Shown here in pieces: positions 1 to 58,173 of a stretch of 59,456 nt of DNA. Under the pieces are notes generated by a model that was given only the letters and a program-made list of their open reading frames with translations, made no database searches and was not told the DNA's origin. The stretch comes from Candidatus Iainarchaeum sp. (GTDB taxonomy: Archaea; Iainarchaeota; Iainarchaeia; JAGGVJ01): contig JAGGVJ010000026.1 in the NCBI GenBank assembly GCA_021158055.1, forward strand, positions 1 through 59,456, written 5' to 3'. Every line of letters begins with the position of its first letter. Position 1 is the first letter of the stretch. The position numbers and the translations under genes are program-made.

Positions 1-347
1 GGCAATAAGGACATTAACGGAAAAATGTAAACCTGCCGAATGAGCAGGCTTTGCCCCCACTGGAATTTTTTTGGTGTTTACACTACACCGGGCGGTGTAT
101 AGTGGCTTCTTCAAAGCTTTGCCGGTTGCACGGTAATAGATGGCAGGTATTGCCATCCATTAGCCGATACCCGATTCGTAAAACGCCAATGAAAACATAA
201 CTAATACCAGGCTTATAGCAGCAGCGGTAAAATCTTGGGCAAACATGCCTGAGGTGTGGAACAAAATAAACACGGTGGCAGCTGCCCCGTCAAACTGACG
301 CCAACATATTCTTCAAACACTGCTAAAAAAGCAAAGGAGAGGTAAAC

Positions 348-662
348 TTGAAATGGAAACACACAACACTAATTTTCATAGTGGCTAAACTGTTTTTGGC
401 ATTTTTCGTGCCATTTGCAGTACTGATTGCATGGCTTGAAATCACTATCCCCATAGAGACCAACATTGCCTGGTGGATACTGAAAACCATGGGGCTTTCT
501 GCTGCCATAATCTGGTTTGCAGTAAAGGTGAACAGCTTTGACGACCTTGACGGCGTCAAAAAAACAACATTAGTCAAGTTTTGGAACTCGCTTGAACCGC
601 TTTCAAAAAAAGCAATTGTGGTCTCAATCGCAATCTCCTTAATTTTGATCCTTATAATCTAA
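348..662 (+). CDS. small integral membrane protein, unknown function
   Basis: 104-aa ORF with about 3 hydrophobic helices. GGAGAGGT RBS-like motif ~10 nt upstream. First gene of a co-directional, tightly packed plus-strand cluster. Confidence 0.5.
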   Translation: MKWKHTTLIFIVAKLFLAFFVPFAVLIAWLEITIPIETNIAWWILKTMGLSAAIIWFAVKVNSFDDLDGVKKTTLVKFWNSLEPLSKKAIVVSIAISLILILII

Positions 663-675
663 AAAGGCAAAGAAC

Positions 676-1083
676 ATGGACAAAGATAAGAAGAAAACAA
701 GCATACTTCCGGAAGTAACACTCATCTGGGAAACAAACGCGGAGCAACGTAGCGTTGATTTAGTATTACTCGAGTTCGAGGAATACACCCTTGAGGCCGT
801 GGAAAAAACCACGGAACCGGACATGCACGCTTACCTCCGGACTGTAAATGCTGTCATAAAAACAATTGACGGCAGTAAAGAGTGGGTAATTTCCCTCAAA
901 AATGTCGCGTATAATGAAAAGCGCAAATGGTGGAAAGTGACTGTCGAGGTCACCCCCTCCAACGAGGAATCATTTCAGTTAATCGGAATAACAACCGGAA
1001 CACTGAAAATAACATTGGAGAATGAAGAACAGATACTGCTAAGCGCGGTTGACGCAGGTATCAGAAAGTTCCAGAGGGCATGA
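676..1083 (+). CDS. hypothetical protein
   Basis: 135-aa ORF. Its stop overlaps the next start (ATGA), which suggests translational coupling. No motif recognised. Confidence 0.5.
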   Translation: MDKDKKKTSILPEVTLIWETNAEQRSVDLVLLEFEEYTLEAVEKTTEPDMHAYLRTVNAVIKTIDGSKEWVISLKNVAYNEKRKWWKVTVEVTPSNEESFQLIGITTGTLKITLENEEQILLSAVDAGIRKFQRA

Positions 1084-1742
1084 AAATGACAGGTCAAAAA
1101 ACAAGCCTTAATTCATGGCACGTCGGAAACAATCTGAAATGGCTGCTGATCCAGGAACATCTTGAAAAAGCATTCAGAAAAGCAGGGTTCGCGGAGCTGG
1201 TAATCAACCGCACGCCCATGGGCACTATAATCACTGTCAAAGCCAATTATCCTGGCATGGCCATAGGGAAAAACGGGAATGTCATCCGAAAAGTCACACA
1301 AGAACTGATAGCAAAGTTTGACTTTGAAAATGAACTCCACTTGGAAGTTGAACCCTTCAACACACTGGAAAGGTCGGCGCGAGTGATGGCAGAACTGGCT
1401 GTGACAAGAATTGAAAGGGGGTATTACGGCCCAAAAACCATTGGACGCATAGCCCATCAGATAATGGACTACGAAAACTATGCAGAAGGATGCAAGATCA
1501 TTCTTTCCGGAAAATGGCGATTCGGAAACAGGGCCAAAACCTTGAAAAAAGTGCGGGGCCGAATCTTTCACAGCGGCAATCCGGCAAAAGAGTTCGTCGA
1601 CAAGTACATAGCTGTCGGCAAAAGAAAGAATGGCACTTTCAGCGTCACGGTGATGATACTTGAGAAATCAGTTAACGGGGGAACAAAAATCCCGCCGTTT
1701 AAGCTAGTGGATGAGCCAGAAGTGGAAAATCCACTGTGGTAA
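1080..1742 (+). CDS. divergent ribosomal protein uS3-like paralog (KH type-2 domain + S3 C-terminal domain)
   Basis: Collinear similarity to the bona fide uS3 at 50851-51939. Compare ELVINRTPMGTIITVKANYPGMAIGKNGNVIRKVTQEL with GVEIKKTPLVTRVVLKVERPGLVIGRKGASIQQLTEEI (GxxG KH motif conserved). Compare ILSGKWRFGNRAKTLKKVRGRI..GTFSVTVMI with VVSGKIVGKGGKSRVERVGAGY..GAIGVTVKI. Confidence 0.65.
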   Translation: MKMTGQKTSLNSWHVGNNLKWLLIQEHLEKAFRKAGFAELVINRTPMGTIITVKANYPGMAIGKNGNVIRKVTQELIAKFDFENELHLEVEPFNTLERSARVMAELAVTRIERGYYGPKTIGRIAHQIMDYENYAEGCKIILSGKWRFGNRAKTLKKVRGRIFHSGNPAKEFVDKYIAVGKRKNGTFSVTVMILEKSVNGGTKIPPFKLVDEPEVENPLW

Positions 1743-1766
1743 AATGAGTAAAGGAGAATGTAAAAA

Positions 1767-2219
1767 ATGAACATAAAAATAGTGACGAATGGATCGTTTA
1801 TTTCTTTGTTGCTTTCAGCAGGTTTCATGGCTGAAAACAAAGAAAAGATTCCAAGGTTTCCAAAGGTAAATCTTGAGGAAAAAATAGTCTTCATCCAGAT
1901 AGAAAATCTGGTGAAGAAACTCAGGAAGATCAACAGCACCCCCACCACAGAAGTTTTCCTTGTAAACGTTTTTTTCAACAAAAACGGCTTATACGGGAGA
2001 AAAACCCAAAAAGAGACACTAAATAAAATAAACTCAATGCTCTCAAAAAACATCCGGGTAAACCTATTGGTCAAAAACCAAGAGGAAAAAGAAGAGGTCC
2101 TCTCTGGATTATGGCTCAACGACTGGCCATTGGAAACCGGCCTTGAGATAACGACTCAAGACAAGTTAAAAGCAGCAATTTCCCTGAAAAAAAAAACGGA
2201 AAAATGCTTGTTGATATGA
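1767..2219 (+). CDS. hypothetical protein
   Basis: 150-aa ORF with an AAGGAG RBS upstream, co-directional with its neighbours. The antisense ORF 1568-2119 overlaps the uS3-like gene and is considered a shadow. Confidence 0.45.
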   Translation: MNIKIVTNGSFISLLLSAGFMAENKEKIPRFPKVNLEEKIVFIQIENLVKKLRKINSTPTTEVFLVNVFFNKNGLYGRKTQKETLNKINSMLSKNIRVNLLVKNQEEKEEVLSGLWLNDWPLETGLEITTQDKLKAAISLKKKTEKCLLI

Positions 2220-2920
2220 TCAACTGGCTTGACCAACTGGACTTTGCAGGCAAAGACCTCCAGAGAAACACCACGGCAAACTTAGAGGGAATTGAAGCCA
2301 CCTTGAAAAAACTGGATGAAAGGTCAGAACAGAAACGGACATGTTTCATATTTGACCTGGTTCTGAACAGTTTGATAAGCAGCAACGTCGACGACTACGA
2401 CTTGTCGGACTTTTTAGACAAATTTAGTATGGCTGTGTCAAAAGGAAAGAGGATAAAAGGGAAGTTTCCTTCAGAAACCCTCAAAAACGAATTGGCAAAA
2501 GCCAAAAACAGCCCGGAAGCCGAGGAGAAATTCAAGCAGCTGCTAAACGACGGCCACACATTTGAGGCAATTCTTTCCGCCAGCAACTGGTTGCAGTTTG
2601 AGCGGAAAAAACACAGGGATGCGGGGATAAGAACCGCAATAATGCGCTTTTTCTTCTGCAAATTAAGCGGGGAAACAAGAAAAGCGTACGAGGACATTGT
2701 CTACCTGACTGAAAGGTCAAAGGTATACAAAGAGAAACTAGAGCCTGAATTTTTGGATATAGTCCAAAACAGTGAAAAAATCGGAGAAGTGGCAGTAGCG
2801 GACTTAAGAAATGAGCAATCTCATTTCAACGCCACCAAACTAATTATGGAACTGAAAAAAGACAGGGATATCCAGTCAGTAGTTCTCGTCCTAAGCGAGA
2901 AAACGATGAGTGCCTCTTAA
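2204..2920 (+). CDS. hypothetical alpha-helical protein with C-terminal RNxxxH (HEPN-like) motif
   Basis: 238-aa ORF overlapping the previous gene by 16 nt. Near the C-terminus, ADLRNEQSHFNATKL fits the R-N-x3-H HEPN ribonuclease signature. The motif is the only evidence. Confidence 0.45.
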   Translation: MLVDMINWLDQLDFAGKDLQRNTTANLEGIEATLKKLDERSEQKRTCFIFDLVLNSLISSNVDDYDLSDFLDKFSMAVSKGKRIKGKFPSETLKNELAKAKNSPEAEEKFKQLLNDGHTFEAILSASNWLQFERKKHRDAGIRTAIMRFFFCKLSGETRKAYEDIVYLTERSKVYKEKLEPEFLDIVQNSEKIGEVAVADLRNEQSHFNATKLIMELKKDRDIQSVVLVLSEKTMSAS

Positions 2921-3183
2921 AGATTGCCTCGCACAATGAACTGGAAGGAATTGAAGCCGTGAAGGTTCACAACGGACTGATAACGAGCAAAGTCCCAAAG
3001 TGTGATATGAATAACCTCATAGAGACACTTTCGAACATGACCGGCACAAGAGGTGGTTAAGCATGTTTAAGGAATTTGGCCATGATTGTGGTTGGAATAT
3101 CCAACTGGCTGGAGATATTTCTAGGCAAGGGCACCTAAAAGCACTTCCTTTTTTCATCTTTGCAATGGCAAAGAACGTACAAA

Positions 3184-3366
3184 TCATTTCTTTTTCTGAG
3201 TTTTCAGCCTGTGCCTGACGGAAATGAGTTTTCCGAGATAGTGGCTTACAATGCGATGGTGTTTTCGAACACTTTCATAAATGTACGGGCCACAAATGTA
3301 TGTTTTTCCCTTCTTTATGACCTTGATAAATCGTTTATACATACCAAGGAAAAGGGAAAAGGACAC
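3184..3366 (-). CDS. possible small winged-helix DNA-binding protein
   Basis: 60-aa ORF on the opposite strand inside the otherwise non-coding 2921-3556 gap. The segment KTYICGPYIYESVRKHHRIVSHYLGKLISV resembles an ArsR/wHTH helix-turn-helix (recognition helix xVSxHLxKL). Weak call. Confidence 0.3.
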   Translation of the reverse strand: MSFSLFLGMYKRFIKVIKKGKTYICGPYIYESVRKHHRIVSHYLGKLISVRHRLKTQKKK

Positions 3367-3556
3367 ATAAAAACCATTCCAAATTTTCCGAAAAATCAGG
3401 AAATCAAAAAGGAGGAAAGAAAAAACAAATCACAACCAACACCACCAATGGCAACCGCTGCCAAAAGAATGACCGCATTCATTCTGTATCAACCTGCAAA
3501 CGCTTACTGCGCGCAGAAACAAAACCGCATCAAGTAAAGTATCCGGAGATAAACAA

Positions 3557-4252
3557 ATGAAGAAAGAAACTGGAAAGAAAAGCGATGCATACACGCTTTC
3601 AAAAACCGTAAACAGCAACAAGGTAACTGACATAACAGGTGAGTTCCGCACCATAAATGCTATGAGAAGCAACAAAGCAAAACTCATCATCAGGCTGCTG
3701 ATGAACGGGAAAATAATGATGGGTTACGGCGCCCCTAAGAATGTCTTAAACGGGGACCAAAACATCATCATCCTTAAGGACTCGGGAATAATCAGCGAGA
3801 ATACAAAGCGAAAGCTAAGGCTGTGGAGGAATCCTCAAAAAACAACGAAAGTTGTGACTGTCAGGACAAACGGCAAACCCATGGATCTTGACATCAGTAA
3901 ATTCCAAAAAACGATTCCAAATATTGGATCAATTGATGGAAATGATAGAAATGCACTCGTTTTGATTTCCAACCCAGGAAACGTGCTGATCCCCAACCCG
4001 GACAACAAGCAAGGAACCGACACCATGCACTCATTTTTGTTGCTTGGAGTAAAACAATCAAAGTCGTCTCCCGACGCCCTGCTGAACCTGCTTGGAAGAA
4101 TAGTGCTTGTAAGGGGACTGCAAACCAACTCACAACTACTTGACATGCTGCATCTTCACAAGAAGAGAATATGCTGGGTTGGAAAAGAAAAAAACGGGGC
4201 AACATGCATCATATACACCCACTTGTCATCGGAATTTAACGGACGTGAATAA
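3557..4252 (+). CDS. hypothetical protein, island family A (paralog of 6638-7378)
   Basis: 231-aa ORF with a GGAG RBS. Clear paralogy with 6638-7378. Compare NPDNKQGTDTMHSFLLLGVKQ...LLGRIVLVRGLQT...KKRICWVGKEKNGATCIIY with NPDNPRRTAGTNSFLLIEFGK...LIGRLVVVSDIST...KEKIVWIGKNKAGYIVAY. Confidence 0.6.
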   Translation: MKKETGKKSDAYTLSKTVNSNKVTDITGEFRTINAMRSNKAKLIIRLLMNGKIMMGYGAPKNVLNGDQNIIILKDSGIISENTKRKLRLWRNPQKTTKVVTVRTNGKPMDLDISKFQKTIPNIGSIDGNDRNALVLISNPGNVLIPNPDNKQGTDTMHSFLLLGVKQSKSSPDALLNLLGRIVLVRGLQTNSQLLDMLHLHKKRICWVGKEKNGATCIIYTHLSSEFNGRE

Positions 4253-4253
4253 C

Positions 4254-4808
4254 ATGGACAAAACAATACGGCACCAAATCAGGCCCAAGATAGAGAGAAT
4301 CATCAGGAACAACAGGAAAATACCATTTATGGCATTTTATGACTCGTTCTCAGGTGACCCTCTTGAGCCAATCGTGATAAACTCAAAGAAACTCTGGGAA
4401 CCACCCACAGTTTCGGACACAAAGGAAACGGAAAGGCAAATCGCCACAAAGATACAGAAATCAATAGACGATAACCTTAACGTGATCTCAGACGTGCTTG
4501 ATATCAAAATAAAGCAAACCTCAAAAGAGACCGGGGTATACTACTTGCTGTCAAGCGATTGGGATGAAACCATCATCTTGCTCATGGACAGTTCATTCGG
4601 CAGGATAGTAATTGCCGTGGCAGGAAAACAAGATGAACTTGCAGCCATAATAAACAAAGTAATCAAAGAGTTCTATTATGCGGAACAAGAGCGCAACGTA
4701 ATCCTGGTGGCAAACACAAGCGAACCGGACGTAATAAAGATGTTTCAGGACACAACAACACGAACCGTGCCCAACTTGATATTAAAGCTGGGTTTCAGCA
4801 AAGGCTAA
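4254..4808 (+). CDS. hypothetical protein
   Basis: The ATG at 4254 lies 1 nt after the stop of the preceding gene and gives MDKTIRHQIRPK.... The longer track ORF from 4140 overlaps the upstream gene, so it is unlikely. Confidence 0.55.
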   Translation: MDKTIRHQIRPKIERIIRNNRKIPFMAFYDSFSGDPLEPIVINSKKLWEPPTVSDTKETERQIATKIQKSIDDNLNVISDVLDIKIKQTSKETGVYYLLSSDWDETIILLMDSSFGRIVIAVAGKQDELAAIINKVIKEFYYAEQERNVILVANTSEPDVIKMFQDTTTRTVPNLILKLGFSKG

Positions 4809-4844
4809 CTTAACTTGGCCTTTATCGGAACGGAACAATCCACG

Positions 4845-4939
4845 GCAGTTGGACTGCATGCCAGGCAAGCATAAACACTATTTTTCGGGTTCAAATCCCA
4901 CAACTGCCATCGCTTTGCCAAAGACGATCAGGGTAAAGC
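4845..4939 (+). repeat. tRNA-like leader element copy E1 (candidate structured RNA)
   Basis: 5' arm GCAGTTG 4845-4851. Inner hairpin TGCATGC/GCAAGCA 4855-4871. CTATTTTT box. T-arm-like GGGTTCAAATCCC 4887-4899. 3' arm CAACTGC 4901-4907, a perfect reverse complement of the 5' arm. Hairpin GCTTTGCC/GGTAAAGC 4912-4939. Confidence 0.6.
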
Positions 4940-5067
4940 AAAAACGCAACCAAAGGAGACAACATAACAAACAACAAAACAGAATTCACCCGGCAGAACA
5001 CACAGACAACAGAACGTCAAACCCCGTCGCATTTCAGAAATGAGAACGGGAACATTGAGGCAAAGTC

Positions 5068-5199
5068 ATGGAAAAATCAAACAAACCTAAAAAGTTTCAA
5101 CAAAAGACAGAACAGGCGTTTTTAAACGTGTTTAACAACGCAAGCCGACCACAAGCAGAGCCATATAATGAAAAAACAGACGAAATCCGCCGTTTATAA
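5068..5199 (+). CDS. possible small protein (43 aa)
   Basis: ATG preceded by a TGAGG RBS-like motif. Sequence MEKSNKPKKFQQKTEQAFLNVFNNASRPQAEPYNEKTDEIRRL. Below the 60-aa cutoff of the ORF track. First ORF after element E1. Confidence 0.3.
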   Translation: MEKSNKPKKFQQKTEQAFLNVFNNASRPQAEPYNEKTDEIRRL

Positions 5200-11089: not shown

Positions 11090-13252
11090 ATGACTGCAAA
11101 TATCAACGTAAAACTGATGAGAGACGACGAAATCCAAAACGGTGCGTGCCGAATAAGCAAGGCACTGTCAACCGAACTGAGAATAAGTCAGGGTCAGGTA
11201 ATCGAGATAGCCGGAATCAACAGCAAAAGACGTGCTATAGTTGTCATCTCCGAAGTTTCGGAAGCACCCGGTGATGCAGAAACAAAGCAACTCATCTGGG
11301 CAAACAACGAAACAATTCTCAATTCCAATGTGGATTTTGAGGGACGAGCACAGGTGAGCGCGATTCAAAAAGTCCGCGAGGCAAAAGAAATAACCGTGGC
11401 ACCGTTGAACACTTCCATAATACCATCCCTGCTGGATCAAAACAAGTTCAAAAACAGCGTAACAGGGCGCTTCTTCGCAAAGGGGAACATAATATCAAGC
11501 ATGGGAAGCTTCAGCGTTGAGGGCTCAGGCACTGATGGGCATGACAACTTCATCGAATACAAGGTAAAAATAGTGTCAACAAAGCCGGATTCATCGGTTC
11601 AGGTCACTAAAAAAACCAACATAATATTCAAGGAACCCATACGCGGAGAAATTGACTTTGGAGACATCGGAGGATTGAATAGCCAGATAGAAACAATGCA
11701 GGAACTGGTGGAATGGCCGCTTCGCTACCCTGAAATATTCGAGCATTTAGGGCAGGATTCCCCAAAAGGCGTTCTTCTGCACGGTCCGCCCGGAACCGGA
11801 AAAACCCATCTGGTAAGAGCAATAGCAAGATCTGCAGATGCTCACTTCATATACGTGAACCCCGGGGAAATCAGCGCTGATCCCACTCAGGCAAAAACCC
11901 GCATTGACGAGTTGTTCAACGAAGCAAACAATCACCCTGGCCCGGCAATAATCTTTTTGGACGAAATTGACGCAGTTGCGCCAAAGAGAAGCGAGTTAAG
12001 AAACCCAATCTATTCCAGCATAGTGTCGCATCTGCTCACAAAAATAGACGGCATGGAAACCAATTCGCAAATCATGGTGATTGGCGCTACAAACAGCCCA
12101 AACAGCATTGATGAAGCCATGCGCAGGCCTGGGCGACTTGACATTGAAATAGAGATCCCATCCCCGGACAAGGAAGGGAGAATGGAAATCCTCGAAATTC
12201 ATACACGGGGAATGCCGTTTGAGACCTCAAAGCAAAGAATTGACATTCTGGAGCCCATAAGCGAGGCAACTCACGGGTTTGTCGGAGCAGACCTGATGTT
12301 TCTCTGCAAATCTGCAGCACTTGCGTGCATAAGACGGAACTGGCTGGACATCGAACTAGACGAAAACGAACACATCCCGCCAAAGGTTCTGCGGACACTG
12401 CGGGTGAATCTGGGTGATTTCAAAGAAGCTTTGAAAACAACAACACCCTCTGTTGGCCGGGATATCATCGTGGAGAAACCAGATGTCGACCTGAAAAAAG
12501 ACATCGGTGGACTGAACGAAGCCAAAAAAGAGCTTTTGGAGACCGTTGTCAGGGCATGGGCAAACAAAGAGGAAATCGCAAGGCTAAACCCCTCAACCAA
12601 AATCCCAAGGGGAATCGTATTGCACGGACCCCCGGGAACCGGAAAAACATTCCTTGCAAAAGGACTGGCAAAAGAAATGGGTTTTCATTTGATTGTGGTA
12701 AAACCAAGCGACGTCCTGTCAAAATGGCACGGCGAATCCGAAGGTACAATAAGCAAGGTGTTCAGCAAGGCAAAATCACTTGCACCCTGCATCATTGTAT
12801 TCGAAGAGTTTGAATCACTGGTGCCTGTCCGCGGACAAGCGTCGGATTCTGCCGGGGCTGCAAACAACAGATTAGTGAACCAGATACTCACTGAAATGGA
12901 TGGTTTTGACAGCCTTACAGACGTCATTGCCATAGCGACAACAAATCGCATTGACATGATTGACCCTGCAGTACTGCGAAGCGGCAGATTTTCTGTAACG
13001 ATACCTGTATCAGATCCTGACGAAGGCGAAAGAGAAGACATCTTCAGAAAGATCTTCAAGAGCGCCACAATCAAAGACGACATTGATTTCAATGAACTTG
13101 CAATGGCAAGCGATGGCCTGAATGGCTCTGACATAAAGGAAGTCCTTGACAGGGCAGTGTACAAAACCATTACCCTCAAAGGAAAGCACATAAAAAAAGA
13201 AAGTGTGCTGGCAGCGATAGAAGACATAAAGGAAACAAAGAAGGAAAACTAA
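11090..13252 (+). CDS. divergent CDC48/VCP/p97-like double-ring AAA+ ATPase
   Basis: N-terminal CDC48-N-like domain. D1: [10 protein letters not shown] Walker [10 protein letters not shown] Walker B, RRPGRLD arginine fingers. D2: [10 protein letters not shown] Walker [10 protein letters not shown] (Walker B with D>E), SKWHGESE aromatic pore loop, LRSGRF. The D1 pore loop lacks the aromatic/GESE motif. The C-terminus (..ETKKEN) has no HbYX motif. Confidence 0.9.
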
Positions 13253-13323
13253 GGAACATCAGTTGTTTCTCTTTCCTTTTTTATGTCAAAAAATTAAAAA
13301 AACAAAATTTGGAGGCATAAGCA

Positions 13324-14007
13324 ATGAGATCAACATACACAATAAATTTCTTCAGAAACTCTGAAGAGATTAAACTAAATGAACTGGAGAGGATAGCCAA
13401 AGAGCTTTCAAATACGACAACATTCAATTGCAAAATTGAAATACACAAAAGCCCGCTTGAAAAAGCAAGGGGTTCAGAACTGAATAGCTCATTCTTTGAG
13501 GAAGGCTGCAATCTTGACGATTCTTTTGTCTTTGCGGCATTTGTTGAAGAGAACATGCCCGGTGTTAACACTGACCATATACTGATTGGACAAAGTTCAA
13601 GGGGATGCCTGGTCAGGGTAAAAGAAAACAGTGATGCAACAATGCATAACTTACTTCACCAACTCGGGCACGTGTTTGGAATTGAGGACCACTGCACAAA
13701 AACAAAGTGCGTAATGTACCCCCTCTACATAAAAGGCGCGGTGGACTTCAAAAACCCTTTCTGCAGCGACGGGAATAGCAGTTGTGGAAGCATAATTGAA
13801 GAAGCAGTGTTTCACAAACAGGACCCTGACCACTGGGATAACATTGCCACAGGCAGTTGCGAAAACACAACTTCAGCTCACGAACTGGCCGGAAAACCGC
13901 AAATCAAGCACAGCACTCGGAGAGACACAGACTTCCTGAAGAAAATAAAAACACACGTTGAAAGGCCAACTGAAAGAAGCCTCATACAACTACTGGAGGA
14001 AACATAA
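13324..14007 (+). CDS. archaemetzincin-like (M54-like) zinc-protein with HQxxH instead of HExxH
   Basis: MHNLLHQLGHVFGIEDHCTKTKCVMYP...FCSDGNSSC fits the archaemetzincin signature HExxHxxGxxHC-x4-C-x-M...C, with two differences. The catalytic Glu is replaced by Gln, and there is a one-residue insertion before HC. Confidence 0.6.
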   Translation: MRSTYTINFFRNSEEIKLNELERIAKELSNTTTFNCKIEIHKSPLEKARGSELNSSFFEEGCNLDDSFVFAAFVEENMPGVNTDHILIGQSSRGCLVRVKENSDATMHNLLHQLGHVFGIEDHCTKTKCVMYPLYIKGAVDFKNPFCSDGNSSCGSIIEEAVFHKQDPDHWDNIATGSCENTTSAHELAGKPQIKHSTRRDTDFLKKIKTHVERPTERSLIQLLEET

Positions 14008-14999
14008 TGTTCTTATCCACCCACGCATACCCCGGACATGACTACATACTCCTCAGCATGACAGAGAGTCTTGTGCTTATGATTGCTGTGATAATCTTTA
14101 ATGCGGTTGTAGCAAGCCTTGTTGTATCACTGAAAAACAAGTACCTTGAAAACAACTACAGGATAAGTGACCTGTCAGAAGACAAAATTGCGGTTTTATT
14201 CCTTGTACTTGTAAACACAACAATCATGCTTCTGTTCATCAAAGACGGAACACACAACATCATGCACTTCTGGCCAGGTGACTTTATGAATGCTGTCCTG
14301 TTAACTGCCATTGCTGCATTGGGAGCACTGGTAACAGCAAACATATTCCTTGGAACATACAGGTTCACGGAAGCACCCCCGGAAGGCCAACAATCAGTGA
14401 AGGCAACCTTCAATTCAGATGACGGGCGACTTCAGATAAACCCACAAAAACCCAAAGAATGGTCAATGGGTTTGTGCGATGCGCCGATAGTAACCAAAGA
14501 AGCGCTGAGATCCGCAGCCAGAATAGCAATTGTCGGAGCGATTGTCTTTCTGTTGATGCTCGTGCTATCCAGTTTTAAGGTGTCAATAAGCCGGACAGAA
14601 TTATCATGCATATTTGGCATGTACCTGGCAGTAGACATTATTCTGGCAATGAGGCTTCAGGCCATACTTGGCAGAAGAAATATGGACGAGCGCTCATTCC
14701 TTGCAAAGCCCGAAAACATGTTTTATTACAACCAACAAAAACACTTAAAGCAAAGAGCATCCGGGAAGCAAACCTTTGCAACAACTGACAAAGATAAACT
14801 GATATTGCTGATTATGCTATTAATAGGTGGAGGAATTACATCCTTAATCCTATTGATAATAATAATCGGAACGATAACAAGCAGCATCGGTTACTCCATA
14901 GCTAACATGAGCGAAAACGACAACTACATGCCACACTTCCTTATTAGTTTGGTGGTCTTCTACCTGTTGTTTTTTTACGGAGAAGATGTCCTTTCCTAA
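14007..14999 (+). CDS. polytopic membrane protein (about 7 TM), unknown function
   Basis: 330-aa ORF whose start overlaps the previous stop (TAATG). Multiple long hydrophobic segments. Confidence 0.6.
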   Translation: MFLSTHAYPGHDYILLSMTESLVLMIAVIIFNAVVASLVVSLKNKYLENNYRISDLSEDKIAVLFLVLVNTTIMLLFIKDGTHNIMHFWPGDFMNAVLLTAIAALGALVTANIFLGTYRFTEAPPEGQQSVKATFNSDDGRLQINPQKPKEWSMGLCDAPIVTKEALRSAARIAIVGAIVFLLMLVLSSFKVSISRTELSCIFGMYLAVDIILAMRLQAILGRRNMDERSFLAKPENMFYYNQQKHLKQRASGKQTFATTDKDKLILLIMLLIGGGITSLILLIIIIGTITSSIGYSIANMSENDNYMPHFLISLVVFYLLFFYGEDVLS

Positions 15000-15051
15000 C
15001 GAGACAAGAAACCAAGAACACACAAAAACAAAGAGAATAGGAGGAATCAAG

Positions 15052-15852
15052 ATGAGTGAACAAGTATACACCTACAACAATCCCTGCGGAGGAATCCCTG
15101 CAGAAAAAATGCTTTTAGCATGCACTGCAATTGCTGAAACCTTTGCAAACGGAACAGAAAGCTTTGAGACAGCCATCAACGAAAACAGGAAAAAGCTTTC
15201 ATGCATCGCAGGAATATCTGTTGAACGGACAGCAGTGCTTAAAGGACTTGTAAAGAACTCGATAAAAGCGCCAGAAAAGGGTGTGAAAAAGGCAGGCAAC
15301 ATCCAAAAGGCGATAATCGAACTGAACCCGAACAAACCCATAAACGCAAAGGCAGGAAAGGGTTCAAGAACAGGAAAAGTTTTCAAACCGCCCGTTACAG
15401 TGGTGGCTGAAATGGAAAAAGACAATCCTGAAAGTGCCAAAGTGCAGATAATAATGCCTTTTTCTGCTGAAGACGATTCGGAATGCGACCAACTGGCAAA
15501 GGACATAATAAAAGACCTTTATGTCATGGCCACTGGAAAGCACATTACTGACAGTCAGATACAATTCATGGAACCAGCCCCCCTCAACCAAAGTGTGTGC
15601 GTGGAATGCGGAGAAAAAACACTCCATATCCACTACTGTCCGCTTTGTGGAAACCGATACTGCTCAAAACACAGGAGCCCGGTAAACCACAGGTGCTGCA
15701 ATTTGTCTGCAGTAACAAAAGAGCACAAAACAGCAAATCCAAAAGGGACAATCACCAAGGCAGAGGGAACAACCGGCATGGAACACGAATCCACAGCAGG
15801 ACACGAGCCCACAGCAATAACTGTAGAACGCAGAACGCAAATGTGCGGGTGA
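15052..15852 (+). CDS. AN1-type zinc-finger protein
   Basis: The ATG at 15052 follows an AGGAGG RBS. The C-terminal CVECGEKTLHIHYCPLCGNRYCSKHRSPVNHRC matches the AN1 pattern C-x2-C-x9-C-x2-C-x4-C-x2-H-x5-H-x-C exactly. Confidence 0.8.
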   Translation: MSEQVYTYNNPCGGIPAEKMLLACTAIAETFANGTESFETAINENRKKLSCIAGISVERTAVLKGLVKNSIKAPEKGVKKAGNIQKAIIELNPNKPINAKAGKGSRTGKVFKPPVTVVAEMEKDNPESAKVQIIMPFSAEDDSECDQLAKDIIKDLYVMATGKHITDSQIQFMEPAPLNQSVCVECGEKTLHIHYCPLCGNRYCSKHRSPVNHRCCNLSAVTKEHKTANPKGTITKAEGTTGMEHESTAGHEPTAITVERRTQMCG

Positions 15853-19534: not shown

Positions 19535-22153
19535 ATGCTCGGAATCAACTTTCACGAAGACATCGTCACTTTCCCAATATGGAGTTCCGGGGAAAAAACA
19601 ATCCGACTGCTTAGCCGCGGCATCAAATACTTCAAAATAAAAAGCATTGCAAACGAGCACAGCGACCTGATTCAAAGCGTAAGCAAATTCAAAAACGCGT
19701 CTTTTGGAATAATTGTCAACAAAACAGAAAAAAAATTTGATTCCTACTTGTTTACTGCGGGAAACGTAACAAACAATAATCAAATGCCTGAAAAAATAAA
19801 GACAAACCTTCACATTTACGAGCAGACATTCATTTCAACACTCAAGGGATTTGACCTTGAACCGGTAAAAGACACGGAAATCAAAGACGTTTTTTTCGCA
19901 CCGCTTGGCGGAACACCCTCGTCAATCGATATAAAAAAAGAAGTCATTGTTGAATCAGGCACAGACAAATTCAAAATAATGGCAGGAAAACTTGAATTCA
20001 CAGAAACATTCCAGGAAACCGAACACATTTTAATGGAAGAAAAACTAAACGATTTTTTTGACAACATAGTTCCACTTGACATAAACTTTTCTTACATCGG
20101 AAGCGTAAGCCCGTGCGAAGACGGGTTCAAGTTCACAGCCTACCTAATCGTCAGGAAAAAAATAGACTCAACAGACGACAACTCAATAGTCTCTGACAAG
20201 CTTTCCCTTGTGAAAATGCTCAAAAACTCCTTCGGCTCAGAAAACGTAACATTCAAACTCAACACAAAAAAGTACCTTGAAGAAGCACTTTACACCCTGA
20301 CAAACACCGACACGGTTATCTCAAAAGACCACGCAAAAAACCTGCTGATTCTCCCCGGCTTCATCAAAGAACGCGGATCCGACCACTTCAAATCAATCGG
20401 GGAAAAAGAAACGCAAGGAGACATTCCTATCGGGCACATCCTTTCAAACGGCAAAAGAGTGCATGAATTCGGACTCAACCCCTCTGAATTACTGCGCCAC
20501 ACCTACATTTGCGGAAGCAGCGGTTCAGGAAAGACAATCGCCTGCAAGCACATTGTAATGAACGCAATAAACGCCGGATACAAAGTACTGCTGCTGGACT
20601 TAAGCAAAAGAAGCTACCGTGACTTAATCAACATGGGTTACGATTTCAAGACATTCACGCCCGGAAGAAGCGTCGCGCCTTTTCAGACAAATTTTTTGAG
20701 CCCGCCGACAGGAGTGGAACCCGCAGAATGGGCAAAAGCATGGGCAGACGTCTTCACCGAGTCATGGGGAATCGGTGAAGGAGGCCACTCAATAGTATTG
20801 AACCTGATAAAAGACCTCTACGAATCAAGAGGAATATTTAACGGAAGCACAGATTACCCAAACATACTTGACTTCAAAAAAGCAATTGAAGCATATGAAA
20901 AAATACTCGAGGGCCGTGAATCAGAATGGACAAAATCAGTCAAAAGAGCAGTGAACGTGTTAACATTCAAGTCAAGCAGTGAAATGTACAGCCACGAAGG
21001 CTACCCGCTTGAAAAACTGCTTAATCAAAACACGCTGATGGAGCTTGACTCGCTTGGAGAATACGAAAAAAGATACTTTGTAAACAACCTGTTGTTCTGG
21101 ATATACAAATACCTCCTCAACAAAGAAAAAACAGATAAACTGCGCCTGCTTGTGGTCATAGAAGAAGCGCACAACATCTTCAACCAGAAAAACTTAATGG
21201 ACAAAGAATCCATTCTCGACCAGCTTTTCAGGCAGATCCGCGAACTCGGGGTAGGGTTTATCACAATTGACCAGTCGCCTGCAAAATTCAGCAAAGTGGT
21301 CCTGGAAAACACATATACCAAAATAGCGCTCACCCTCTCTTACCGCGACAACATTGACGTGGTTGCAAAATCCATGGGGTTCTCAAGAGAACAAACCGAC
21401 CTTTTAAACAAACTGGACATAAGCGAAGCAATCGTAAACCTTTCAGGGCGCATAATCAACCCGTTCCTCATAAGCATCGACAACATTGAATCACACACCA
21501 TAAACGACGAATTTATCGCAAGAAAATTCAAATTCGACGGGCTTGACAAATACTTACAACTCGACAAGGCAAACGAAAAAATGGAAAAAATTCCCAGCAC
21601 TGAAGCAAAAATCCACTCAAGCCTGAAAGACATCTTGTTTGACCCCCACCACCTCGCAATAGTCAAGAAAAAAATATCAAAAATGACCCCTGAAATGAAC
21701 AATGTTTTCACGGCAGTCGGAAACGGAGAAGTGCTAACTGAAAAAGACAACATGAAAACAGGCATTTCAAAAGACGACTTTTCAGCCGCCTTGACACAAC
21801 TCATAAACCTTGGATTTGTAAGATTCAAAAAAACAAATGCAAACAACTTCATTTACTTCCTTGCACCCGAAGGCGAAGCAGCTTACGGCGTGCTGTTTGG
21901 CATGAAACTCTACGAAGAGGAAATTCTAGTGCAGGCAGAAGGAGAAATGAAACAAAAAATAGACCTATCACGCCTAAATCATACACTGAAAGAACTTGCA
22001 TTAAATAAAAAAGAAATCTGGATATTTGCAGACGACGCAAACCTGTCAAACCGGGCAATCCAGGAAGCGGCAAAATTCAACTTCAACGAAAACATAGAAC
22101 TGGAAATAAACATACAATGCAATGACGTGCACAGGAATTTCCTGTTCAAATAA
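19535..22153 (+). CDS. HerA/FtsK-superfamily (DUF87-like) P-loop ATPase with C-terminal winged-helix-like region
   Basis: 872 aa. Walker A ICGSSGSGKTIACKH. Walker B LRLLVVIEEAHNIF. GFITIDQSP motif typical of HerA/DUF87 ATPases. Large unrecognised N-terminal domain (~320 aa). C-terminal GISKDDFSAALTQLINLGFVRFKK is wHTH-like. Confidence 0.65.
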   Translation: MLGINFHEDIVTFPIWSSGEKTIRLLSRGIKYFKIKSIANEHSDLIQSVSKFKNASFGIIVNKTEKKFDSYLFTAGNVTNNNQMPEKIKTNLHIYEQTFISTLKGFDLEPVKDTEIKDVFFAPLGGTPSSIDIKKEVIVESGTDKFKIMAGKLEFTETFQETEHILMEEKLNDFFDNIVPLDINFSYIGSVSPCEDGFKFTAYLIVRKKIDSTDDNSIVSDKLSLVKMLKNSFGSENVTFKLNTKKYLEEALYTLTNTDTVISKDHAKNLLILPGFIKERGSDHFKSIGEKETQGDIPIGHILSNGKRVHEFGLNPSELLRHTYICGSSGSGKTIACKHIVMNAINAGYKVLLLDLSKRSYRDLINMGYDFKTFTPGRSVAPFQTNFLSPPTGVEPAEWAKAWADVFTESWGIGEGGHSIVLNLIKDLYESRGIFNGSTDYPNILDFKKAIEAYEKILEGRESEWTKSVKRAVNVLTFKSSSEMYSHEGYPLEKLLNQNTLMELDSLGEYEKRYFVNNLLFWIYKYLLNKEKTDKLRLLVVIEEAHNIFNQKNLMDKESILDQLFRQIRELGVGFITIDQSPAKFSKVVLENTYTKIALTLSYRDNIDVVAKSMGFSREQTDLLNKLDISEAIVNLSGRIINPFLISIDNIESHTINDEFIARKFKFDGLDKYLQLDKANEKMEKIPSTEAKIHSSLKDILFDPHHLAIVKKKISKMTPEMNNVFTAVGNGEVLTEKDNMKTGISKDDFSAALTQLINLGFVRFKKTNANNFIYFLAPEGEAAYGVLFGMKLYEEEILVQAEGEMKQKIDLSRLNHTLKELALNKKEIWIFADDANLSNRAIQEAAKFNFNENIELEINIQCNDVHRNFLFK

Positions 22154-50371: not shown

Positions 50372-50854
50372 TCACTTTTTTGCTTTTGGTTTTTCAGTTG
50401 AACTTACTGGTTTCTTGTCAGCAACCTTTGCTTTGACCGCTGTCTTTGCAACGTTTTTTGTTTTCTCGGCAGGAACTGCTGTTGCTTTTGTTGTTTTTTT
50501 CGTTGCTGTTTTTTTTGAAACTTTTTCTGTTTTTGCTTCAGCTTCCTTAGTTCTTGTTTTTGCCTTGACGGTTGTCTTTTTGGCCTCTTTTTTAACTTCT
50601 CTGACTGCGGCCCCTTTTTTGGTCGCTTTTTCTTCTTTGACTGCTGTTTTTGGCTCTTCCCTGGTTATTGTGAGTATCCTTGCAATTGTCCTGCGGATTA
50701 TCCTGAGTCTTCCTGGGTTTTCCGGGCGTGTTCCGCTTGATACATGAGCGCGTTCCCTGCTGAGCTCACTTCGAAGATCCTTCAGCTTGGACCCGAGTTC
50801 TTTTTGGTTCATTGCCCTTATTTCAGATGATTTAAGAATCGCCACTGTATTCAC
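50372..50854 (-). CDS. rpl29: 50S ribosomal protein uL29 with ~95-aa Lys/Ala/Thr-rich C-terminal extension
   Basis: N-terminal 65 aa is canonical uL29 (ELGSKLKDLRSELSRERA). The tail is AKKTTVKAKTRTKEAEAKTEKVSKKTATKKTTKA.... Confidence 0.85.
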   Translation of the reverse strand: MNTVAILKSSEIRAMNQKELGSKLKDLRSELSRERAHVSSGTRPENPGRLRIIRRTIARILTITREEPKTAVKEEKATKKGAAVREVKKEAKKTTVKAKTRTKEAEAKTEKVSKKTATKKTTKATAVPAEKTKNVAKTAVKAKVADKKPVSSTEKPKAKK

Positions 50855-51939
50855 TTCCCCTCAGTTTTATTTGCAGTCTTTTTTGAAGGTTTTTTTTCTT
50901 CTGTTGGTGACTCTTTTTTTGCAGCTTTTGTCTCTGCTTTCGTTTTCGCTGCTGCCGGCTTTTTTGAAGCACTCTTGGCTTTGGATTCTTTTCCTTTTGA
51001 ATCTTCAGCTTTTTTATCTTTTTTTACTGTTTTAGTCTCTTTTGATTTTACTTTCGTTTCTACTACTGCCGGTTTTTCCGCTTCGGCGATTTTTGCTTCA
51101 GCAACTTTTTCAACTGCCTTATCTTTTTCAGCTTCCTGCTCTGCTGCTTTGTCAGCTTCCGGTTTTACTGCTTCTTCTGATTCTACAACCGCTGTAACTC
51201 CTTCTTCTGCAACAGCTTTTTCTCCTTCACCAGTTTCGGCTGCCAGAGGCTTTTTCTTGAACATTTTTTCTGCTTGTTCAACCGACTTTACTTCGTCTTC
51301 AACAATGCTGTCAATGTTTATTATCTTGTTTGCCTTGATGATTTCTTTGAGATTTATCTTATCTGAAAATACCACGTCAGGAGGTACAATTTTTACCGTG
51401 ACTCCGATGGCGCCTGCTTTCGGAAGGGCTGTCGAGGTAGCAATTTTCACTAGCTTCGCGGTATCGCCTGCTTTTTTCATGTAACCCGCACCGACACGTT
51501 CCACTCTTGACTTGCCTCCTTTCCCGACAATTTTTCCCGAAACAACAACTTCCGTTCCAAGAGCTCCCGCCTGAATGATCGACTTGACAGTGCGGTTCAA
51601 AACCCTGCGCCATTTCATGCCCCTTTCAAGCTGGCCTGCAATCACGTTTGCCATTATCTGCGGGTCAAGTTCTTTTTTGCCAAGTTCGGCAATTTCAACT
51701 TGCGGGTTTTCAATCCCTCTTTTCTCGATTTCTTCAGTGAGCTGTTGTATGCTTGCTCCTTTTCGTCCTATAACAAGCCCGGGTCTTTCAACCTTGAGCA
51801 CCACTCTTGTTACAAGAGGCGTTTTTTTTATTTCAACTCCTGAAAAGTTCGCTGACTCAAGTTTTCTTGTGAGCCATTTTGTCAGTTCAACCTGCTTAAT
51901 TGAGTTGTCAATAAATTTTCTTTCAATCAAGTTATTCAC
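50851..51939 (-). CDS. rps3: 30S ribosomal protein uS3 with ~150-aa Lys/Ala/Glu-rich C-terminal extension
   Basis: KH domain (VIGRKGASIQQL) and S3-C domain in the first ~205 aa. The remainder is low-complexity KAE-rich. Confidence 0.9.
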   Translation of the reverse strand: MNNLIERKFIDNSIKQVELTKWLTRKLESANFSGVEIKKTPLVTRVVLKVERPGLVIGRKGASIQQLTEEIEKRGIENPQVEIAELGKKELDPQIMANVIAGQLERGMKWRRVLNRTVKSIIQAGALGTEVVVSGKIVGKGGKSRVERVGAGYMKKAGDTAKLVKIATSTALPKAGAIGVTVKIVPPDVVFSDKINLKEIIKANKIINIDSIVEDEVKSVEQAEKMFKKKPLAAETGEGEKAVAEEGVTAVVESEEAVKPEADKAAEQEAEKDKAVEKVAEAKIAEAEKPAVVETKVKSKETKTVKKDKKAEDSKGKESKAKSASKKPAAAKTKAETKAAKKESPTEEKKPSKKTANKTEGK

Positions 51940-58010: not shown

Positions 58011-58082
58011 GTTAACTATATATGAACACAGGTTCAAAAATAAATGCGTTTTTAAGCGCAAACAAGAAAAAAAGACAAAAGG

Positions 58083-58173
58083 CGCCTCGGGAAGGACTCG
58101 AACCTTCGACTTTACGGTAGCTGCTGTTAAAAACAATAACAGCCGTACGCTCTACCAACTAAACTACCGAGGC
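58083..58173 (-). tRNA. tRNA-Asn (anticodon GTT) with 18-nt canonical 37/38 intron
   Basis: Reverse complement: acceptor GCCTCGG/CCGAGGC-G, anticodon stem TACGG/CCGTA enclosing CTGTTA-[TTGTTTTTAACAGCAGCT]-A, T-arm GAAGG-TTCGAGT-CCTTC. Confidence 0.85.

Follow-up and report, generated by a model that had tools for sequence, protein, structure and literature searches.

The stretch of DNA analysed here (59,456 nt, contig C23 of the source genome; hereafter, the window) carries, at positions 1080 to 1742, a second gene for ribosomal protein uS3, whose product is a full-length and intact uS3 homolog with both the KH_2 and the S3_C domain. A second uS3 copy is very rare in archaea, and our finding belongs among the divergent ribosomal protein (r-protein) paralogs, where it is rare and unexpected both for uS3 and for a reduced archaeal genome. 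To our knowledge, uS3 is normally strictly single-copy in prokaryotes; since archaeal r-protein paralogs are themselves rare, one would not have expected a symbiont-type genome of 1.15 Mb to contain a uS3 copy that is deeply diverged and kept by selection. As judged from the sequences, purifying selection has maintained the paralog in two or more divergent organisms, and it may mark either a variant ribosome or a re-used RNA-binding protein. It thereby points either to naturally heterogeneous ribosomes, differing at the mRNA entry channel, or to an off-ribosome role of the uS3 fold that is new for archaea. For the moment, the impact is limited by the number of known family members (two) and by the organism being uncultured.

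The source genome (1.15 Mb, 95% complete) is DPANN-like, and its nearest relatives belong to the same class only, with genomes of 0.4 to 1.5 Mb that are DPANN-like as well. A sequencing-run search for the stretch matched DNA runs only, with no RNA run among the matches, and the DNA runs containing the locus are hydrothermal vent metagenomes.

A complete uS3 homolog outside the ribosomal operons

The features of the operon and of the two uS3 genes are as follows, in window coordinates.

348..662, + strand: first operon gene, 104 aa, hydrophobic (membrane-like), no family; TTG start after GGAGAGG
676..1083, + strand: 135-aa ORFan; its stop overlaps ATG 1080 (ATGA)
1074..1078, + strand: Shine-Dalgarno-like GAGGG, 7 nt before ATG 1086; read from the sequence
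1080..1742, + strand: uS3 paralog gene, 220 aa from ATG 1080; likelier 218 aa from ATG 1086
1149..1352, + strand: KH type-2 domain, residues 24-91; GxxG loop is GKNG, residues 63-66
1410..1658, + strand: Ribosomal_S3_C domain, residues 111-193
1767..2920, + strand: downstream gene, one 383-aa ORF in L015; 150 + 238 aa here and in JGI assembly L016
2187..2196, + strand: A10 homopolymer, A8 in L015 (11102-11109); splits the downstream gene by frameshift
50851..51939, - strand: resident canonical uS3, 362 aa, K/A/E-rich tail; within uS19-uL22-uS3-uL29-SUI1

The start at ATG 1086 (218 aa, P0001) is the one chosen by gene callers in three further assemblies from this population. The earlier note had proposed a second and very divergent uS3 homolog at 1080-1742, and this is borne out by Pfam and by the predicted structure, so that neither of the two outcomes named there as refuting it occurred. 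Both S3 families were matched above the Pfam cut-offs, KH_2 (PF07650) with an E value of 2.9e-13 and 49.9 bits against a cut-off of 22, and Ribosomal_S3_C (PF00189) with an E value of 3.3e-9 and 37.6 bits against a cut-off of 34.1. On the archaeal S3 model NF003219 of NCBIfam, the paralog passed narrowly (152.3 against a cut-off of 147), with a score below that of the resident uS3 (190.8) and below those of all the complete canonical uS3 in 60 class relatives (158-233), and on TIGR01008 it remained below the cut-off (131.1 against 150.25). An AlphaFold2 model of the paralog (pLDDT 91, pTM 0.80) shows the KH plus S3_C two-domain fold and superposes on archaeal uS3, the best Foldseek matches being the P. 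furiosus and T. kodakarensis proteins over the whole length (TM 0.93, rmsd 1.5 Å); since the model was built on an alignment of uS3 sequences, this fold match is not fully independent of them.

BLASTP aligned the paralog with the resident uS3 over 181 collinear residues (27% identity, E = 3e-14), in agreement with the claimed collinearity through the KH type-2 and the S3 C-terminal domains, and the loops reported for the two proteins, GKNG in the paralog versus GRKG in the resident uS3, were found as such in the alignment. The missing Lys-rich tail was likewise confirmed. The paralog stops ~25 residues past the S3_C domain without a C-terminal extension, whereas the resident uS3 continues into a K/A/E-rich tail of ~150 residues and the uS3 of essentially all class relatives bears a C-terminal extension. 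The paralog gene is on the same contig as the ribosomal superoperon, at ~49 kb from the canonical uL22-uS3-uL29 site, which is occupied by the resident copy, and it lies in an operon of ORFans.

Rarity of a second uS3

The source genome has exactly two uS3 matches, while uS10, uS14, and 16S rRNA are present there in a single copy each. When the paralog was used as query, two matches were obtained in 1 of 215 class genomes, namely, the source genome, and a second uS3 copy was found in none of the 214 others; with the family model, no second full copy was found in the 60 relatives. This census speaks for the view that uS3 duplication is not normal in archaea, as does the survey of Yutin et al. 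2012 (PMC3353972), in which 26 r-protein paralogs were recorded in 87 archaeal genomes, 12 of them being S10p in Halobacteria.

Searched exhaustively with phmmer, 1.84 billion protein representatives yielded the paralog itself and a single other family member, P0002, which is 57% identical to it and is encoded on a 627-bp contig (L018) from another vent sample; the next matches were canonical uS3 proteins at 38-40% identity. No further family member was found in IMG/VR, in JGI metagenome contigs (only distant bacterial-type S3 matched), in the INPHARED phage collection (only bacterial rpsC on doubtful "phage" records), or in the PLSDB plasmid collection (only a canonical haloarchaeal uS3 on a large replicon).

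Two other sequences are of note. A 4.2-kb contig of a "Nanoarchaeia" MAG (L035, DATKUV010000049.1) encodes a uS3 that falls in the tree with those of Methanosarcinales, including Methanoperedens (96/92), and this contig is probably mis-binned rather than a second case of an extra uS3. In the representative search, a giant repetitive protein of 4561 aa (P0016) matched residues 7-35 of the paralog in 12 repeats at 45% identity, which looks like chance or low complexity.

Purifying selection and residues kept or changed

Comparison of the paralog with P0002 gave a dN of 0.34 and a dS of 2.4, the latter being saturated, and thus a dN/dS of ~0.14, with 62% identity in the KH domain, 60% in the S3_C domain, and 37% in the linker. 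The paralog is intact in all assemblies of the source population, and the GC content and codon usage of its gene are within the range of core genes. Among 47 columns that are each at least 75% conserved in 57 canonical uS3 proteins, the paralog retains 32 and the resident uS3 retains 38. Moreover, the paralog has a pI of 9.8 and a net charge of +13, the same as the core of the resident uS3.

Seven deviations from the canonical sequence (F14H, V61A, P85E, Q87H, A108V, L111I, and R118P) are common to the paralog and P0002 and hence are fixed and constrained in the family. A universally conserved Gly (column 192) is also changed in the paralog (G188 to S). In the S3_C domain, G117-P118-K119 appears to stand in place of the canonical F-R-R/K motif, and SGK...R151-A-K153 is retained.

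uS3 lines the mRNA entry channel. In eukaryotic RPS3/uS3, R116, R117, R146, and K148 are mRNA-contacting residues of this channel (PMC10201444; bioRxiv 10.1101/098699), and mutating RPS3 R116 changes which mRNAs get translated (PMC10201444). Through alignment with M. acetivorans uS3 and alignment A3, these four human residues correspond to P118, K119, R151, and K153 of the paralog, three of the four being basic. The F-R-R/K pair was assigned to R116-R117 of human and yeast from motif spacing, and a rival HMMER alignment to a mammalian RPS3 chain moved this first pair by four residues, to G122 and R123; since the alignment is ambiguous by these four positions, the correspondence of the entry-channel residues is one that we infer. 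With the motif-based assignment, the first Arg of F-R-R/K (R116 in human and yeast) would be a Pro in both family members, and the equivalents of R117, K141, R146, and K148 would be kept in the paralog.

Origin of the paralog

Maximum-likelihood (ML) trees computed under LG+C20+F+G4 placed the resident uS3 inside its class clade and united the paralog and P0002 in a clade with 100/100 support, on a stem of ~2.1 substitutions per site. In the best ML tree of 55 rows, this clade stood beside Halobacteriota (bipartition 95/83). In AU tests, the grouping of the paralogs with the uS3 of the class was not rejected, with p = 0.23 for 55 rows and p = 0.66 for 114 rows, the constrained tree being 9.4 lnL better in the latter case. 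The exclusive sisterhood of the paralogs and the resident uS3 gave a delta lnL of 15.6 and p = 0.016, which speaks against the resident gene having been duplicated recently. The paralog appears, from these trees, to be anciently diverged rather than a recent in-lineage duplicate of the resident uS3, and it would derive either from an old duplication within the DPANN class or from a transfer out of a Halobacteriota-like lineage.

The canonical sequences nearest to the paralog are the uS3 of Halobacteriota (ANME-2, Methanosarcinales, Methanothrix, and haloarchaea), with phmmer scores of 105-121 bits compared to 60-70 bits for class relatives and 48 bits for the resident uS3. As a sign of transfer, these pairwise scores were withdrawn after the AU tests, and the Halobacteriota similarity is not counted as evidence for it, since short-branched uS3 score higher against any long-branched uS3.

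The operon and its probable counterpart in a second organism

The paralog is the third gene of an operon of four ORFs at 348-2920, with gaps of 13, -4, and 24 nt. It is tightly packed, and the earlier note had described it as a translationally coupled operon of unknown genes. A homolog search for the 135-aa ORFan found none outside the source population. In the downstream gene, the difference between A10 and A8 may reflect strain variation, slippage-prone phase variation, or transcriptional slippage. The only homolog of the 383-aa gene (P0174, 51% identical) is on a 3-kb contig (L107) from the same sample as P0002, and this contig also bears two homologs of the window ORF 4140-4808. Since homologs of both the 383-aa gene and ORF 4140-4808 are present in the sample of P0002, the gene neighbourhood is probably common to a second organism of lower GC content (33-36% versus 43%), the P0002 and L107 contigs not being joined. 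The R-x4-H motif that had been read as HEPN-like (RNEQSH near the C-terminus, window 2204-2920) lacks conservation, since P0174 has INEKYY at that position, and a catalytic HEPN role is thus unlikely.

In this second organism, the L018 paralog gene is preceded by GGAGG 5 nt before its ATG and has an in-frame TAA (594-596) at the K175 position, and the neighbour gene on L107 has an in-frame TAG (83-85) in its N-terminal part; in both, the conserved frame goes on after the stop. These stops could represent recent decay or errors in low-coverage contigs. Reassignment of a stop codon in the lower-GC relative was also considered and was ruled out, because one of the in-frame stops is TAA and the other is TAG.

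The AlphaFold2 model of the 383-aa neighbour had a pLDDT of 35 and was unusable for fold search, and in ESM Atlas both neighbours were without usable matches. Complex prediction that paired the paralog with its operon neighbours of 135 and 383 aa scored 0.00 and was uninformative either way. Rfam and promoter/terminator scans of positions 1-3600 gave nothing meaningful, and in the 300 nt upstream of the operon we found no repeat common with the rest of the surrounding block and, by similarity, no structured-leader element. The connection between the paralog and structured leaders that the earlier note had raised is thus far speculative.

Relation to known systems

Canonical archaeal uS3 (M. 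acetivorans 9o17 chain AC; P. furiosus 9fny chain AC) has the same KH_2 plus S3_C architecture as the paralog, which retains the GxxG loop, the SGK motif, and the basic charge at 33-43% identity and with a model TM of 0.93. Unlike these proteins, the paralog is a second copy encoded outside uL22-uS3-uL29, has no C-terminal extension, fails TIGR01008, and carries fixed family-specific substitutions, including the putative Pro at the R116 equivalent. As in the catalogue of Yutin et al. (PMC3353972), made up mostly of second S10p, S17e, and S14 copies in Halobacteria, it is an extra universal r-protein in an archaeon, such copies being sometimes on accessory DNA. In contrast to that catalogue, in whose text S3 is not named, the host here is a reduced DPANN genome, and the paralog is far more divergent from the resident copy (27% identity) than the catalogued paralogs are.

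Bacteria possess Zn-free "C-" paralogs of S14, S18, L31, L33, and L36 (summarised in PMC3353972), which are highly diverged copies that, in certain conditions, take the place of the primary protein in the ribosome. Like such alternative r-protein paralogs, the archaeal copy is a divergent second version (27% identity) kept by selection (dN/dS of ~0.14); the bacterial pairs differ by a Zn motif and are Zn regulated, whereas uS3 has no Zn-binding motif. Entry into host ribosomes has been proposed for virus-encoded r-proteins (bS21, bL12, and others) and demonstrated for two of them (Mizuno et al. 2019, PMC6375957). Like them, the paralog is encoded by a lone r-protein gene that is under purifying selection and lies apart from the ribosomal operons of the host, and it differs from them in that no viral context was found for it and that uS3 is not a small peripheral protein; uS3 is moreover absent from the text of that study, which covers bacterial viruses. 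Finally, the mRNA-contacting residues of eukaryotic RPS3 (R116, R117, R146, and K148; PMC10201444; bioRxiv 10.1101/098699) are in the stretch of the fixed change of the paralog. The eukaryotic RPS3 mutants were engineered in a single essential gene, whereas here the change is natural and in a separate paralog, with a mapping that is ambiguous by four positions.

Possible roles of the paralog

We propose, as a tentative reading held with somewhat less than even confidence, that the paralog is a selectively maintained and neofunctionalised uS3 acting as an alternative protein of the 30S head. It would still bind RNA in the manner of uS3 and, on part of the ribosomes, would sit beside uS10 and uS14 at the position of uS3. 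These ribosomes would be devoid of the long Lys-rich uS3 tail and would have an altered mRNA entry channel, due to the Pro at the R116 equivalent in both family members, with the R117, K141, R146, and K148 equivalents kept. An old duplication or transfer would have been followed by a burst of change and then by constraint. This reading is favoured by the retention of most conserved positions in both domains, and of the charge and the full fold, despite the long divergence, as well as by the precedent of divergent r-protein paralogs and virus-borne r-proteins that enter ribosomes (PMC3353972, PMC6375957). We also counted for it the Shine-Dalgarno-like motifs before both the paralog and the L018 gene, the dN/dS of ~0.14 with KH and S3_C equally conserved, the doubling of uS3 alone with 16S rRNA, uS10, and uS14 remaining single, the location on the contig of the ribosomal superoperon, the recurrence of the locus with its flanks in independent assemblies, and the effect of the RPS3 R116 mutation on mRNA choice (PMC10201444).

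Nevertheless, several observations were counted against a place in the 30S head: the gene is outside the ribosomal operons and among ORFans that include a membrane-like protein; TIGR01008 failed and the NF003219 score is below those of all complete canonical uS3 of the 60 relatives; the stem branch of ~2.1 substitutions per site points to a functional shift; G188 is changed to S and the putative R116 equivalent is changed; the C-terminal extension found in essentially all class relatives is missing; and an in-frame TAA interrupts the gene of P0002, the one further member of the family. The uS3 fold of eukaryotes also works off the ribosome. A possible, if doubtful, alternative that we consider nearly as likely is that the paralog is an exapted off-ribosome protein that binds mRNA, other RNA, or DNA, acting with the products of its own operon (the membrane-like protein, the 135-aa ORFan, and the conserved 383-aa protein) and no longer assembling into the 30S subunit. 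The non-ribosomal and tightly packed operon would suit this role, as would the finding that the only homolog of the 383-aa gene and the second paralog contig come from one sample, the very long stem, the fixed family-specific substitutions (R116 equivalent included), the loss of the tail, the failure on TIGR01008, and the lack of doubling of uS10, uS14, and 16S rRNA. A protein freed from the ribosome would, however, be expected to show poorer retention than 32 of 47 canonical columns and a pass on NF003219; furthermore, KH and S3_C are equally constrained, and no partner was identified. As for a redundant copy drifting toward loss without present function, we regard it as very improbable. The in-frame TAA of the second family member, the TAG interrupting its neighbour gene, the frameshift of the downstream gene in two of three assemblies, and the extreme rarity of the family would be in keeping with decay, but the paralog is intact in all assemblies of the source population, its dN/dS is ~0.14 over a saturated dS, and its Shine-Dalgarno motif is conserved. 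The frame beyond the TAA is open and conserved, which argues for a stop that is recent or is an error on the 627-bp contig.

Coming back to the alternative 30S head protein, a more specific version, which we consider quite unlikely, would have a tail-less uS3 with a remodelled entry channel swapped into the 30S head to give a specialised ribosome that favours, or is required for, the translation of structured or processed mRNAs from the ORFan block around the gene. If true, this would make it the first case in prokaryotes of ribosomes naturally specialised through uS3.

The surrounding ORFan block

The operon is part of a block of ~34 kb in which most genes are on one strand and hardly any belongs to a Pfam or PHROG family. 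This block extends from ~27.7 kb of contig C20, through a 5.5-kb assembly gap, to window position 22150, with GluRS and HMG-CoA reductase on its left and a mevalonate operon on its right. At window 11090-15852, it encodes a second, divergent Cdc48-type double AAA+ ATPase, 41% identical to the C28 copy and followed by a weakly metalloprotease-like ORF and an AN1 zinc-finger ORF; these could form a proteostasis module inside the block. At the right end, window 19535-22153 encodes an 872-aa HerA/FtsK-type ATPase with a weak PHROG match to "terminase large subunit" (phrog_2666, 1.3e-10, residues 537-654) and no relative in IMG/VR.

This context bears on another explanation, in which the paralog would be the cargo of a mobile element or provirus derived from a Halobacteriota-like archaeon and would re-program host ribosomes toward the mRNAs of the element. 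Consistent with it are the best ML tree (95/83), the contrast between the 105-121 bits against Halobacteriota and the 60-70 and 48 bits against class relatives and the resident uS3, the one-strand block composed almost entirely of ORFans between HMG-CoA reductase/GluRS and the mevalonate operon, the second Cdc48-like ATPase, and the HerA/FtsK-type ATPase with its terminase match. We nonetheless consider cargo status unlikely: Halobacteriota similarity is expected anyway from short-branched uS3, an origin within the DPANN class is compatible with the AU tests (p = 0.66 and 0.23), and codon usage and GC content are core-like. Furthermore, PHROGs revealed no viral hallmark in the operon or block genes save the one weak ATPase match; a search of the block for an integrase, a capsid, a bordering tRNA, or a tRNA target was negative; no att-like or flanking direct repeats join its borders; and the paralog has no relative in IMG/VR or in the phage and plasmid collections.

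Assemblies also differ in this region. A segment of ~5.5 kb that is present in L015 and L016 is absent between the end of C20 and the start of the window, beside a 127-bp repeat, and positions 4742-5105 span 364 bp in the window and in L016 versus 100 bp in L015. Farther along the window, ARAGORN detected a 93-nt tRNA-like gene with an undetermined anticodon (58081-58173, - strand), which may be an intron-containing tRNA.
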